From sequence record PZ171035.1: 64,000 nucleotides of DNA; one strand, 5' to 3'. The notes under the pieces were generated by a model. It was not told the DNA's origin. It did no database searches and saw nothing but the letters and a program-made list of their open reading frames with translations. Each line of letters starts with the position of its first letter. Within the stretch, counting starts at the first letter, position 1. The stretch comes from a phage. A program made the position numbers and the translations under genes. Positions 3,086 to 36,053 of this stretch are shown one piece after another.

Positions 3086-3303
3086 TGTACAGCACTAATT
3101 ATGGTATTTGCCCGATTTGCAATAAAGGAAGAGGAGTTGCTAATCATAAGAAGTGTAGTCGTATCCTACAGAAACGACGGAACCAGAAAGAATGGGATAA
3201 GATATTGGAAAATCAACACAAAGATGAGTTCAAGAAAACAGCTGTTAAAGCGTCTACTCAGCTCATTCGTCGTACTAACTTCATAGAAGGTTATCAGAAA
3301 TGA
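3082..3303 (+). CDS. hypothetical zinc-ribbon protein
   Basis: 73-aa ORF with CPIC...C motif, ATGA overlap with upstream gene. Confidence 0.4.
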   Translation: MMYSTNYGICPICNKGRGVANHKKCSRILQKRRNQKEWDKILENQHKDEFKKTAVKASTQLIRRTNFIEGYQK

Positions 3304-3554
3304 TTATTACTTATCCTACAGGCAAGAACGTGGAATATATGGGGCATACCATCCAAGTACCTCATTGGGTTAAGTACATAGCATTACTACCTCGTCAATA
3401 TAAGAGTGCTAATACCTCATTAATAGGATTCTCTAAGAAACCTAAGCTAACAGAAAACAATATCTGGGTATCCTATGGGAGACAAGAAGAGATTGGTTTC
3501 TGTGATTTGAGTATTGTCGATAATAACATCTATGGGACATTGAGAAAGGTATGA
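3300..3554 (+). CDS. hypothetical protein
   Basis: 84-aa ORF, overlapping start/stop with neighbours. Confidence 0.4.
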   Translation: MIITYPTGKNVEYMGHTIQVPHWVKYIALLPRQYKSANTSLIGFSKKPKLTENNIWVSYGRQEEIGFCDLSIVDNNIYGTLRKV

Positions 3555-4242: not shown

Positions 4243-4420
4243 GCAATGCAAATGTGGTAAAGGCCATGTATCCCAATGGGATGGTAAATGTGGTCATTGC
4301 CGAACCAAGAAAGAACAGCGTGACCATGAATATGCTCTTACTTACTTAGAAGTAACTCGTAAATACAACAATATGACCACACACGATGCTTATACTTACA
4401 ACAGAGAGGCATGTAAATGA
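4235..4420 (+). CDS. hypothetical Cys-rich small protein
   Basis: ORF 4220-4420; ATG at 4235 preceded by GGAGA; CKCGKGH...CGHC cluster. Confidence 0.35.
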   Translation: MDKQCKCGKGHVSQWDGKCGHCRTKKEQRDHEYALTYLEVTRKYNNMTTHDAYTYNREACK

Positions 4421-33326: not shown

Positions 33327-34095
33327 TCTGGTAGGTGGCTCAGAAGCTGCTGCTATTTGTGGTAGTGTTCGTAATTCTGATGCTATTGCTTATCAGGATT
33401 CTGGACGTGTCGGCTCCATACATAGCATTTATCATCACTGTGCTTATACTTTGGAAACTCAGTGATAAAAACGGTGGTGACAAGCCGCCAGAGTAACAAC
33501 AACAACCGAACCAGTGGACTTTATTACTCCCCGAAGTCCACTGGTTCAATCTAAACTAAGCGGAAAAGTTAGCTTTTTCTTGGGTGTAGAACCTGTTGAA
33601 GGAAACAAAGAATTTCACATTGAATAGTTAATATCGTGAAGGGTTCTGTTAGAATCCTTTGAGATAGGAACTCCTATCATAACTATTCTTAACTTAATCA
33701 TTGCCGTATGGCACTGACGCTAGGGGTGGCCCCCCCATCCGTCAGGTAGACTATTTTAAGAATGGATTATCACAGCAAATGTAAAGCAACATTCGGGTTA
33801 ATCAATGGCCTCTCCCTATAGGGGCCATTTCTGAATCTTAGGCTATATCCCAAAGGTTAGTATCTTTGGGATAAGGCTTCAGATCCCTTATCAACTAACG
33901 CTCGTGTTGAGCATTTTAATCACATAAGCCCCTATATGGGCTGGGTTAAATGTCGGATAGCAAAGCTACCTACAGCATCGAATTGTTAGGTCTTACATGT
34001 AATATAGGGTATAAAGGGAGGACTCGTCCCCTCCCTCCTATTATGACATCCTATCAATGAGTACATTAAGCTAACGTGCGGAGGTTTACACTGTA

Positions 34096-34657
34096 GCCGG
34101 TGTAGGTGGAGAAGACGGCAGGGTAGCTACCTGTGCTTAGTGTACTCTTTGATAGTTTTCGTAAGCGATTATGCGGTTTTTTAGAAACGAACCAATAACA
34201 TAAATGCAAACGATGATGTTGTTCTGATGGCGGCGTAATAGCCTGTAAGTCAGCAAGGTCTTCCGACTCCTTGTAAGCAAATTCGGCGCAGTGGCCCGCT
34301 GTGATTAATAATGGGCACACAACAGGTAAGAGCATTTAGGCTACTGAGAAATCATCCGAGGCAATCAGACCTATCTTCTGTTAAGTGCTCTTTCCGTTGT
34401 GGTGAATGCGCAGGCTGATGCGCAGTGGGACGTGGCTGACTCACGAGGATGGCTCAAGCGAATAAGCAAGCTCGACGCCGCCGAATAAGCGCCTTATGCC
34501 GGAGATCAGCACCGGCCACCACAACAAGTCCAGACGATATCTGAGTGACTATAAAAACAGATGGAGCCAGGTGGAATCCCTGGCAACTAATTCCGGTGTA
34601 GGTACTAGTGTCGTGCACGGCATGAGCATTCTGGTTCGAGTCCAGACGCCGGAACCA
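34096..34657 (+). ncRNA. candidate tmRNA-like RNA (tag-like reading frame at 34206-34241; limits very tentative)
   Basis: GCA AAC GAT GAT GTT GTT CTG ATG GCG GCG TAA TAG = ANDDVVLMAA + two stops, AU-rich upstream, resembles tmRNA resume/tag regions; 3' T-arm-acceptor-ACCA at 34630-34657; no G3-U70 pair found. Confidence 0.3.
34592..34657 (+). tRNA. tRNA-like minihelix element A (acceptor stem + T-arm + A + CCA, truncated body)
   Basis: 5' TCCGGTG pairs with 3' CGCCGGA; T-arm TCTGG-TTCGAGT-CCAGA; encoded ACCA; only 66 nt, no canonical D/anticodon arms. Confidence 0.35.
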
Positions 34658-34659
34658 AT

Positions 34660-34783
34660 TACCAGTTGCACGAGATGGCTTGACATGTTCAAGTTTGGAC
34701 TAAGTGTGACACCGCTAGATTGGAGGGCTGCTGCGGTAAGCTATAGACTCCAACCGGAGGTTCGAATCCTTCACTGGTAACCA
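34660..34783 (+). ncRNA. tRNA-like element B (T-arm + acceptor + ACCA, 124-nt body)
   Basis: 5' TACCAGT pairs with 3' ACTGGTA; T-arm GGAGG-TTCGAAT-CCTTC; encoded ACCA; too long for a canonical tRNA. Confidence 0.3.
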
Positions 34784-35366
34784 ATTCAAAGTAGCACTCG
34801 TTTATACTTCCCGGTATTCAAAGACACATTCTTGTGTGAGTGTTACTCTGAATTGTAAGAATTATGGGGGTAAGTCGTAAATACGACAGCGTAAGTACCA
34901 GATGAAACCTCTGGACGCCCCTACCATATTTGAGATGTAACAGTTAAATCCGTACCCGGAAGTGCTATTCTAGATACGCTGCCAATGTGGAGACGGTAAG
35001 GCTGTACAGGACTCGGACTCCCACCTCAAACCAAAGTCGCCAGATACTTATGGCAAACGGGTAGTAACGAACTAGTCATTCGTCAAACGCCCACCCTATT
35101 ATGAGTCAGCAAGAACGCCTTCACTTAAACTTAAACAAAAAAGCTTAACGCAATAATTATGTAGGGGTATGTAAGGATTGCGAAGAAGGAGCCAGTTAAA
35201 GTCTGGCATGACTCACCTAATTGAGGCTGTACTTATGTTCTACAGTAGGTGCACAACACTGGGCTGCTACACCCAGAGGTACAGCCTCACCCTATTATGG
35301 GTAGCCTATACTAGTTATAGGGCAGATAATCTGTGGCAGTGTAAGGCTGCACTACCCTTTCATTAA

Positions 35367-35442
35367 TACCCGGTAGGCTTAGTGGTAAAGCCCCACTAGT
35401 AAACCAACTAGGACGCAGGTTCGAATCCTGTCCGGGTAGCCA
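35367..35442 (+). tRNA. tRNA-like gene C (76 nt; canonical acceptor, D and T arms; non-canonical anticodon loop)
   Basis: Acceptor TACCCGG/CCGGGTA, D-arm GGCT-TAGTGGTAA-AGCC, T-arm GCAGG-TTCGAAT-CCTGT, G + CCA; anticodon arm folds only as CTAGT/ACTAG with 6-nt loop or CTAG/CTAG with 8-nt loop. Confidence 0.5.
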
Positions 35443-35447
35443 TTTAT

Positions 35448-35532
35448 GCCCACTTAGCTCAGTGGTAGAGCGCAGGAAAGCTTCGAGAGAACAAGGTGTC
35501 TGTGGTCACTGGTTCAAATCCAGTAGTGGGTA
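35448..35532 (+). tRNA. tRNA-like gene D (85 nt; canonical acceptor, D and T arms; anticodon region not foldable by eye)
   Basis: Acceptor GCCCACT/AGTGGGT, D-arm GCTC-AGTGGTA-GAGC, T-arm ACTGG-TTCAAAT-CCAGT; 35-nt segment between D and T arms. Confidence 0.45.
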
Positions 35533-35848
35533 CTTATTTGCTGCAATATTCCCATAGGGAATGGTGTCGTATACGCCACCTAGTTTCTGGTGAAACTCCA
35601 GATGCAGCAATCCATTCAGCAGTAACATAGTCCTGATTGCATTGCACTCTAAAGACAACACTGGTAAGACAGTCCAGTGGCTGCTATTGTATTGATATTC
35701 CCCTCGACGGGAATTTCGCTAGTGAAGGTAACACTTAAAAATCCAAACCCACGTCTTACTGCTATCGGGCTATCAACCCACAGTCGCTTAACACACTAGT
35801 GGTAGTAGTTTGACGACCTAGCCTCGTTAGCTGCGTTAAAGCTACTAA

Positions 35849-35886
35849 GTCCCCTAGAGCCGCCCCTCTAGGGGACTTTTTTATTT
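35849..35886 (+). terminator. strong intrinsic terminator closing the RNA-gene region
   Basis: GTCCCCTAGAG-CCGCCC-CTCTAGGGGAC hairpin followed by TTTTTTATTT. Confidence 0.7.
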
Positions 35887-36053
35887 GAGTATTAATAACC
35901 GGATAATCAATATGATTGACCTAATCTCAACCCCGTATGCCTATGAGGTAACGGACAACCGAGGGCATAAGTACTTGGTATTTGTAGGTAGCGTAGCCTA
36001 TAACAACGCAGTCATGTTTAAGTACAAACTCAAACCACTCTATGAGGCTAATA

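Follow-up and report, generated by a model that had tools for sequence, protein, structure and literature searches.

The subject of this analysis is a tag-like reading frame and the RNA around it in a phage genome (sequence record PZ171035.1). The whole stretch of 64,000 nucleotides (nt) that was analysed is called the window and is numbered from its first letter. Its best matches are KKP 3715, nithesis and PE007, and the phage is a Gamaleyavirus, a G7C/N4-like coliphage, in agreement with an earlier note, made from the letters alone, that had spoken of an N4-like phage. The region belongs to a ~2.5-kb island without long open reading frames (ORFs) at about 33500-36040. Within it lies a structured RNA of ~170 nt (34153-34316) with the tag frame at its centre, which resembles the message part of bacterial transfer-messenger RNA (tmRNA) and is referred to below as the tag RNA. 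Its parts are the following.

34153 to 34162, plus strand: 5' motif UAGUUUUCGU, the exact reverse complement of nt 97-106 of E. coli tmRNA (ACGAAAACUA)
34163 to 34199, plus strand: putative leader at the position of tmRNA pseudoknot 1 (PK1)
34200 to 34205, plus strand: AUAAAU 5' of the resume codon, with U(-5) and A(-4) at the places of E. coli U85 and A86
34206 to 34241, plus strand: tag frame ANDDVVLMAA followed by UAA UAG, identified from the sequence, the family comparison and the substitution pattern
34224 to 34253, plus strand: equivalent of tmRNA helix 5, CUGA (34224-34227) with UCAG (34250-34253), enclosing the end of the tag and the stops
34254 to 34286, plus strand: first post-tag pseudoknot, CAAGG (34254-34258) with CCUUG (34269-34273), and loop CCGA (34263-34266) with UCGG (34283-34286)
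34287 to 34316, plus strand: second post-tag pseudoknot, CGC.AGU (34287-34292) with GCUGUG (34298-34303), and GCCC (34294-34297) with GGGC (34313-34316)

The frame reads GCA AAC GAT GAT GTT GTT CTG ATG GCG GCG TAA TAG, with AATAACATAAAT directly upstream. Frame, double stop and the AU-rich stretch before the resume codon are exactly as the earlier note had given them. The tag begins with a GCA resume codon that has neither a start codon nor a Shine-Dalgarno sequence, and it ends in an alanine-rich C-terminus and a stop. Inspection of the sequence revealed an in-frame stop upstream of the tag and no in-frame start codon. The nucleotides expected at -5 and -4 for setting the frame are in place, and A-U-A at -6 to -4 is common to the window and E. 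coli (AUAAAU versus AUAGUC before GCA). The main frame-setting determinant on tmRNA is A86 (PMC2481249). For loci found by scanning IMG/VR the resume motif was partly inside the search pattern, which is not so for loci derived from blastn. The exact 13-mer TAAATGCAAACGA occurs once in the window, where 0.09 chance matches are expected with one mismatch allowed. By itself this occurrence is no more than mildly unusual, and what decides is the comparison with other genomes.

The 175-nt core (34148-34322), used as a blastn query, matched 755 of 50,697 phage records. Among the names listed, all organisms or hosts belong to the Enterobacterales (Salmonella 265, Escherichia 223, Klebsiella 107, Erwinia 52, Shigella 33, and others), and the carriers are apparently all phages of this order. 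They comprise unrelated groups, namely N4-like phages, ~47-kb siphophages (HC6, BUCT610), Ackermannviridae (T765, PM10, Vi01), Ounavirinae (Mordin, Pistou, Felixounavirus) and the lambdoid phage HK633. The family is present in at least six unrelated phage lineages, so that the tag frame, for which conservation in related phages had been named as a check, is kept in related and unrelated phages alike. At every locus examined the tag RNA lies in a transfer RNA (tRNA) cluster or in a non-coding island or leader, on the same strand as the tRNAs; such positions were seen in HC6, BUCT610, T765, Mordin, Pistou and PM10. When 5,426 complete E. coli genomes were searched, 1,325 proved to contain parts of the region. 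A full copy is located in a lambdoid prophage of E. coli between the Q antiterminator and the holin, and a further copy adjoins tRNA-Asn and tRNA-Thr on a ~97-kb plasmid, which by its gene order we take to be P1-type.

The family loci carry either no annotation or small "hypothetical proteins" laid over the tag RNA. Several such short proteins, mostly on the opposite strand, are found in the public records of nithesis (locus L129, 902-1594) and BUCT610 (locus L002, 1622-1924); they lack conservation and probably represent annotation errors. Whatever the context, the tag RNA gives no match above threshold to any Rfam family. In the literature we found no description of such an element, and six of the tag peptides appear in no paper that we found.

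The tag was compared in 33 family members, whose sources were the blastn hits and the IMG/VR motif scan. Each of the 22 distinct tag DNAs has ten codons and then a stop, with TAA, TAG and TGA all in use. The peptides follow the pattern AN[DE]x x[FYVM]L[AM][AV]A, as in ANDDVVLMAA, ANDEQFLAVA, ANEEMYLAVA, ANDNTFLAVA and ANDTQYLAVA. Variation falls mostly on third positions (entropy 0.56/0.43/0.98 for the three codon positions of the 22 DNAs). Pairwise comparison of codons differing by a single nucleotide gave synonymous to non-synonymous ratios of 392:289 in frame 0, and of 20:500 and 110:416 in the other frames. Judged by these substitutions, the tag frame evolves as a translated ORF. The phage tags are in register with AANDENYALAA: the N-terminal AAND[DE] is kept and position 7 is usually aromatic, and the C-terminal ALAA is replaced by LMAA, LAVA or LAAA. 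The N-terminal part that the phage tags keep is the SspB-binding half of the E. coli ssrA tag.

The structure of the tag RNA was derived from an alignment of 22 distinct cores (alignment A1), an RNAalifold prediction and pseudoknot pairings spotted by eye. Five helices with 23 pairs result, in which 91.9% of the cells are paired, compared with 33-46% when the partners are slid. Both sides have changed at 15 of the 23 pairs (5-8 in the slid controls), and 66 cells are doubly changed (10-13 in the controls). None of 500 shuffles attains the observed percentage of pairing, the number of compensatory pairs or cells, or the covariation score. The RNA has a helix 5 around the stop and pseudoknots after the tag. 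In the helix 5 equivalent a GC pair is replaced by AU in a compensatory manner in six of the 22 sequences. The first post-tag pseudoknot (helices 2 and 3 of the five), with seven of its nine pairs changed on both sides, aligns to a helix of the beta_tmRNA model. The second one (helices 4 and 5) has a conserved loop, GAUUAAUAA, and longer covarying stems in loci L001, L004, L005 and L006. A second subtype, found in the sister phages KKP 3715 and PhAPEC7 (tag ANEEAYLMVA) and also in P1-type copies, is built alike although its stems differ in sequence. Of the pseudoknots PK1-PK4 that the earlier note had proposed to look for, the two after the tag were thus found with covariation, and a covarying PK1 was not. 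Candidates for the latter (GUUUU/GAAAC, CUUUG/CAAAG and GGUU/AACC) were rejected, their register not being kept across lineages. Minimum free energy (MFE) is uninformative for the tag RNA of the window because 34130-34530 folds no better than shuffled sequences (z=-0.4). Coincidence, which had been left as one explanation of the frame, can be dismissed: the frame recurs, it evolves like a translated ORF and covarying structure surrounds it.

Downstream of 34316 the tag RNA probably continues through a hairpin and a domain termed Z to about 34525. Judged against pSb-1 (locus L130) and loci L132 and L133, positions 34156-34525 of the window represent an exchangeable cassette site. In pSb-1 (1270-1295 of the locus) only a short hairpin, CTTTGATAG GTTGTA CTATCAAAG, replaces tag RNA, hairpin and Z domain, and by its sequence it looks like the empty site. 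KKP 3715 and PhAPEC7 carry the ANEEAYLMVA subtype at the same position.

For comparison with known tmRNAs we used curated models, and the tag RNA reaches the required score in neither ARAGORN nor Rfam. ARAGORN made no tmRNA call at the window locus, and at the gathering threshold Rfam returned two downstream tRNAs only and no tmRNA. The scans over this region, which had been suggested as a check, therefore gave no tmRNA hit above threshold and only sub-threshold matches on the message part. The model tmRNA_permuted reached 31.2 bits (gathering score 47; E=1.4e-4 in a focused scan) with 113 positions of the tRNA domain skipped. In permissive scans beta_tmRNA reached 13.7-18.5 bits (gathering score 84); its alignment covers the resume region, the tag, the post-tag helix and the loop CCUUGUAAGCAAA, opposite CCUUGuuACcaAA in the model. 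What the Rfam tmRNA models match is thus confined to the resume, tag and post-tag part, with the tRNA domain passed over. Sub-threshold matches to tmRNA models were also obtained in HC6 (L001), BUCT610 (L002) and Mordin (L004). Compared directly with E. coli ssrA, the tag RNA shows no significant similarity (score 34 versus 26 +/- 4.6), and a blastn search of the tag RNA against E. coli genomes matched prophages and plasmids, with ssrA not among the matches. Loci that were fetched with the same 14-mer and excluded from the family are genuine permuted tmRNAs according to ARAGORN, with tags such as ANDERFLMAA and ANDNAFLMAA. They serve as positive controls and are the nearest sequence relatives of the tag RNA. 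A two-piece arrangement, with the acceptor piece upstream, was found by ARAGORN in the control loci L015, L019, L047, L057, L063, L083 and L112, and in none of the window, L001-L003, L005 and L006.

The likeness is closest to the coding piece of two-piece tmRNAs (Rfam RF04321, and RF01850 of the beta-proteobacterial type). Common to both are the resume context, AUAAAU before GCA AAC GA, a 10-codon ANDxxxLxAA tag and a stop codon inside a helix, and in the beta_tmRNA model the post-tag helix and the CCUUGU.A.CAAA loop align. Unlike these coding pieces, the tag RNA has no 5' acceptor strand, no D-loop sequence UUCGACAGGG and no upstream acceptor piece; it has two pseudoknots after the tag, and an antisense-like motif forms its 5' end. 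On sequence comparison, the family is either derived from the coding piece of a two-piece tmRNA or a close copy of it. With standard tmRNA (ssrA, RF00023, of E. coli) it shares U-5/A-4, the GCA resume codon, a 10-codon tag in register with ANDENYALAA, the double stop, helix 5, pseudoknots and a comparable size (about 375 nt if hairpin and Z domain are included). In contrast to standard tmRNA it has no tRNA-like domain, no G3:U70 and no linked CCA end, it is encoded by phages and it sometimes has its own promoter directly at the PK1-position region.

A tRNA-like domain linked to or paired with the message was not found, although two tRNA-like elements are located downstream in the window.

34592 to 34657, plus strand: mini tRNA-like element of 66 nt with acceptor UCCGGUG/CGCCGGA, no anticodon arm, a T-arm, A-CCA and C3-G70
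34660 to 34785, plus strand: tRNA-like element of 126 nt with acceptor UACCAGU/ACUGGUA, expanded arms, T-arm GGAGG-UUCGAAU-CCUUC, A-CCA and C3-G70

Both elements have U1-A72 and C3-G70, are followed by AACCAAU and are missed by ARAGORN and the Rfam tRNA model. The T-arm, acceptor strand and ACCA end that the earlier note had placed at 34630-34657 are indeed present. They belong to the self-contained 66-nt element, which has a perfect 7-base-pair (bp) acceptor stem and a fold z-score of -2.0, and they are not shown to be part of the tag RNA. The combination of T-arm, acceptor strand and NCCA occurs in the window only at 34630, 34756 and 35415, each time pairing with a local 5' strand. An acceptor with G3:U70 was found on neither strand of the 64-kb window, where the acceptors have C3-G70; the failure to find this pair that the note had reported is thereby borne out. 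A tblastn search of the window for a homologue of SmpB was negative. Because tRNA-like domain, G3:U70 and model scores all fail, the tag RNA is not a tmRNA by membership criteria. Of the "phage tmRNA-like RNA" that had been suggested, the tmRNA-type tag template and the post-tag structure stand, and these three properties do not; the accompanying caveat of a "diverged or decoy element" was nearer to the truth. The tag RNA appears to be a tmRNA-related form without a tRNA-like domain, undescribed and common in well-studied phages.

Other phages are known to carry tmRNA-derived genes. Those of the Bxz1 group and of Bacillus phage G are complete tmRNAs, whereas the tag RNA represents the message part only. 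Mycobacteriophage DS6A keeps half a tmRNA, which can interfere with the host tmRNA (PMC4131195, PMC11915505). This RNA consists of the tRNA-like domain (TLD) only, and the tag RNA family keeps the opposite half, the message. A message-only form is not listed in the 2025 tmRNA database.

The 5' motif is complementary to nt 97-106 of E. coli tmRNA, which lie inside codons 3-6 of the host tag, GAC GAA AAC UAC (Asp-Glu-Asn-Tyr). We determined the longest contiguous Watson-Crick complement to ssrA in 37 family members. In 36 of them it is the pairing of the 5' motif, located within nt 96-108 and 7-12 nt long, mostly 10-11. The flanks of the pairing differ by lineage (96-105, 96-106, 97-106, and 97-108 in an Erwinia phage). 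From this complementarity we propose that the 5' motif is a seed for pairing with the host tmRNA. RNAduplex runs of full-length tmRNA against the phage RNAs gave only meaningless, loop-ridden hybrids. A phage-encoded CGAAAAC partner was not found near the tag RNA in any phage locus. In HC6, BUCT610 and Mordin a promoter, TTGACA-17-TAGATT/TAAGAT with 10 of 12 matches, is predicted 5-10 nt before the tag RNA, and the RNA 5' end predicted from these promoters in the three lineages is within about 0-5 nt of the 5' motif. Since the predicted promoter ends 5-10 nt before it, the primary transcript would start at the 5' motif without an upstream acceptor strand. In Pistou the scan called no promoter.

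The tag RNA resembles the 5'-seed small RNAs (sRNAs) such as the Pas sRNAs, STnc100 and AgvB (bioRxiv 10.64898/2026.05.13.724894) in its conserved 5'-terminal motif, which is perfectly complementary to a host RNA and probably single-stranded. Pas-type prophage sRNAs also occupy the same lambdoid niche, the leader between Q and holin, although the RNAs of the preprint are different ones. Unlike these, the tag RNA is much larger and pseudoknotted, has its own conserved ORF-like frame and no evident Hfq-type terminator, and its proposed target is the tmRNA tag template instead of a messenger RNA (mRNA). None of the named sRNA families matches it.

As the best explanation we tentatively favor a large, undescribed family of phage RNAs that would provide a tag template without a tRNA part and work through the alanyl-tmRNA and SmpB of the host. 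The frame has neither a start codon nor a Shine-Dalgarno sequence and stands behind a tmRNA-type resume context, from which we infer that it is read by trans-translation. The product predicted on this reading is stable, about 170-380 nt long and begins at or close to UAGUUUUCG, and the tRNA-like function would be supplied in trans, most likely by the host Ala-tmRNA-SmpB. Through its 5'-terminal 10-12 nt the phage RNA may anneal to the single-stranded host tag template, which would mask this template and tether the phage template to the rescuing complex. It is possible, and in our view rather doubtful, that the docked RNA not only blocks the host tag but offers its own resume codon and tag ORF, which would amount to hijacked trans-translation in phages of Enterobacterales. 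The template would be switched either when the tethered one is loaded or when pairing resumes at the GCA-AAC-GA start that both frames share, and proteins from stalled ribosomes would end in (A)ANDDVVLMAA instead of AANDENYALAA. Their fate could differ, since the C-terminal ALAA becomes LMAA, LAVA or LAAA. A speculative benefit for the phage would be an altered proteolytic fate, the SspB-type N-terminal half being kept and the ClpX-type C-terminal end changed (L-M-A-A or L-A-V-A for A-L-A-A). Alternatively, and equally speculative, rescue could be kept working when the host template is attacked.

Several points weigh against a tag template that works through the host tmRNA. To our knowledge there is no precedent for a tag template given to tmRNA in trans, and a 10-nt duplex can be unwound by the ribosome. 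The synonymous and non-synonymous counts are pairwise and not phylogenetically independent, and RNA structure contributes to the conservation of the tag because part of it lies inside helix 5. No single covarying pseudoknot extends across lineages at the PK1 position, a leader of 40-55 nt. The length of the complement to tmRNA is by itself not significant, since shuffled sequences reach 9-12 nt somewhere in tmRNA, and only the flanks of the motif are unbiased because TTTTCG was part of the family filter. All named hosts share the tag codons, leaving no host variation with which the motif could be compared. In most members GUUUU of the 5' motif could pair internally with GAAAC, a partner that is absent in several lineages.

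An untranslated decoy or antisense RNA directed against tmRNA would pair with the host template and/or imitate the tmRNA message and so titrate S1, SmpB, RNase R or the ribosome, and would thereby blunt or stop trans-translation by the host in the infected cell. It would account for the complementarity to host tag codons 3-6 and for the missing tRNA-like domain. Precedents are the inhibition of tmRNA by the TLD-only RNA of DS6A, a reverse case (PMC4131195, PMC11915505), and the loss of function upon pairing at tmRNA nt 95-100 (PMC2481249). A decoy, however, needs neither exactly ten codons, nor a stop of one or another type at codon 11, nor variation biased to third positions with the amino acids conserved. 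These features point to decoding, and we regard the decoy as unlikely.

Quite improbable is a phage-specific split tmRNA, with the tag RNA as its coding piece and with an acceptor piece formed by another tRNA-like RNA of the phage, which would carry some amino acid different from alanine. The homology to two-piece coding pieces would fit this arrangement, as would islands rich in unusual tRNA-like elements. In the window the candidates are 34592-34657 and 34660-34785, both of which end in A-CCA; elsewhere they are hairpin modules capped by a T-loop or permuted tRNA-like genes. A consistent tRNA-like partner is nevertheless missing: many lambdoid-type family loci have no tRNA-like 3' end (T-arm, acceptor and CCA) within -1.5 to +2 kb, and those near other family loci are ordinary tRNAs or lack G3:U70. 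The sequence 3' of the tag module differs even among Gamaleyaviruses. The presence of the 66-nt element varies among relatives, and in PhAPEC7 the counterpart of 34660-34785 adjoins the tag module directly. Moreover, no complementarity linking the pieces and no G3:U70 acceptor were found, and both candidates are missed by the Rfam tRNA and tmRNA models.

A captured tmRNA fragment without a role in translation, spread by recombination as a selfish or relic cassette or serving as a processing element or spacer of tRNA transcripts, would be in line with the mosaic presence of subtype A, subtype B and the empty pSb-1 site at one locus. The association with repeated hairpin modules also fits. Such a cassette is very improbable in view of the conservation in at least six unrelated lineages, of a peptide under purifying selection, of four helices with compensatory changes and of own predicted promoters in several lineages.

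The earlier note had modeled a complete one-piece phage tmRNA at 34096-34657, with a tRNA-like 5' start at 34096 that pairs with the 3' end. GCCGGTGTAGG is present at 34096-34106, GCCGGUGUAGG at 34096 repeats UCCGGUGUAGG at 34592 and could pair with CGCCGGA, and about 560 nt is conceivable for a large tmRNA. However, this strand forms a G1-A72 mismatch with the 3' strand CGCCGGA, next to C3-G70, whereas the local 5' strand gives the perfect stem, and the segment 34096-34160 gives no sign of folding (z=+0.67). Nor are the 5' segment and the tag module found together in relatives: 34047-34135 is missing from nithesis and IME11, which have the module and the 3' element, while pSb-1 keeps 34044-34155 and lacks both others. 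ARAGORN and Rfam make no call, though ARAGORN detects the genuine permuted tmRNAs. The proposed 5' start has to be given up, and the one-piece tmRNA is largely refuted and extremely improbable. That the opposite strand encodes a small protein (window ORF 34066-34335, 89 amino acids), as suggested by the ORF list and by hypothetical proteins annotated over the match in nithesis and BUCT610, is hardly credible and, from the compared sequences, refuted for lack of conservation. The opposite-strand open stretches span 26 to 106 amino acids and keep to no one frame, nithesis already has the ORF interrupted at 98% identity, and the covariation is that of RNA helices.

tmRNA is viewed as a single molecule, or as two tightly paired pieces, in which the tRNA and message halves are always together; catalogues list forms without the message and none without the tRNA half. 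A conserved and structured message-only relative, whose frame evolves as though translated, poses the question how its frame is decoded without a tRNA-like domain of its own. Hundreds of sequenced phages carry the tag RNA, among them workhorses of the laboratory and of therapy (FelixO1-like, Vi01-like, P1-type, lambdoid and N4-like), and in these genomes it is unannotated or mis-annotated as hypothetical proteins, and it merits an Rfam family. If the favored explanation is true, it would be the first tmRNA message supplied in trans and a new layer of phage control over the protein quality control of the host, with the degradation tag of host and phage proteins alike being rewritten by the phage. 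It would then bear on phage-host conflict, on the mechanism of ribosome rescue and on trans-translation as an antibacterial target.

Further RNA elements flank the tag RNA in the island.

34005 to 34046, plus strand: hairpin GGGAGG...CCUCCC followed by CCTATTATG, 5' of the RNA genes and kept in five of five Gamaleyavirus relatives
34139 to 34150, plus strand: AGTGTACTCTTT, a diverged copy of the hairpin-module strand GCTCTTTCC, just 5' of the tag RNA
34318 to 34402, plus strand: recurrent hairpin module, CACAACAGGUAAGAGCAUU, a variable cap and AGUGCUCUUUCCGUUGUGG, present in N4-like, siphophage, Taipeivirus, lambdoid and P1-type copies
34396 to 34525, plus strand: Z domain with a 9-bp closing helix GUUGUGGUG/CACCACAAC, hairpins at 34405-34423 and 34498-34516 and a variable middle

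The first element is repeated and ends in the C-rich CCCTATTATG, with copies at 34005-34046, about 35075-35103 and about 35270-35299; the GGGAGG...CCUCCC hairpin is in the first copy. CTATTATG likewise has three copies in the window, one of which overlaps a weak promoter-like match. Because the repeated element is conserved in all Gamaleyaviruses read and precedes each group of RNA genes, it may be a phage promoter or processing signal, and 34005-34046 is a putative signal of this kind for the RNA island.

Closure of the module by pairing of 34139-34150 with 34322-34336 was rejected as a general rule, the strands not being complementary in locus L127. A P2-like helix between a GCUCUUUCC strand at -67 and a AGGUAAGAGCA strand at +117 appeared attractive in many loci and was then dropped. 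These two strands more likely stem from separate flanking hairpins, since they are not complementary in L127 and the promoter-driven copies lack the 5' strand. The hairpin module flanks the tag RNA and tRNAs and was also observed in loci L007 (3925-4000 and 4180-4290), L002 and L008 (2830-2900 and 3110-3200). Some of its caps consist of a D-arm-like hairpin and the T-loop GGUUCGAAUCC (L008 at about 3110-3200, L037, L045, L100 and L114). The module might serve as a site of processing or imitate the tRNA elbow.

The two hairpin loops of the Z domain are complementary (GCUGAU/AUCAGC), and MFE and centroid structures agree (z=-1.5). Pseudomonas phage CF57a (91% over 116 nt) and temperate phages of Klebsiella and E. 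coli carry conserved parts of the domain with no tag module. The likeness of its Z2 hairpin to a hairpin of the sRNA rydB is not significant (E=4.6).

Several tRNA-like genes with unusual features were observed in the island and its relatives. At 35448-35532 of the window the anticodon arm of a tRNA-like gene (Rfam tRNA, 53.9 bits) is replaced by a 24-nt insert, CAGGAAAGCUUCGAGAGAACAAGGUGUCUG, and a near-identical module is found in the variable part of the Z domain in the lambdoid prophage copy (L007, about 4300-4340). The gene at 35367-35442, called "tRNA-???" by ARAGORN, which assigned no anticodon (Rfam tRNA, 39.3 bits), is annotated as tRNA-OTHER, tRNA-Cys or tRNA-Thr in relatives. A permuted tmRNA (tmRNA*) that ARAGORN reported in Citrobacter phage Mordin is an artefact, its 5' tRNA domain lying inside tRNA-Lys. 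At about 960-1060 of this locus a T-arm, ACCCUUC, GCCA and AACA are followed by GAAGGGU UA GUGUAAUGGCAGCAC, that is, by a 5' acceptor strand and a D-arm. By its sequence this is apparently a circularly permuted tRNA-like gene and the true sequence behind the artefactual call. In the virulent Taipeivirus T765 of Klebsiella (L003) STnc100 scores 40.8 bits (gathering score 47) at 3149-3337, 1.6 kb downstream of the tag RNA. Finally, large tRNA-like structures are located 3' of the tag RNA in Ackermannviridae (Salmonella phage PM10, L006, about 1720-1960; L003, about 2260-2330). One has the acceptor GCCGUU...AACGGC-UCCA and a T-arm, and another has a 16-bp stem, CACAUCUUAGAGGACA / UGUCCUCUAAGAUGUG, with a T-arm cap.

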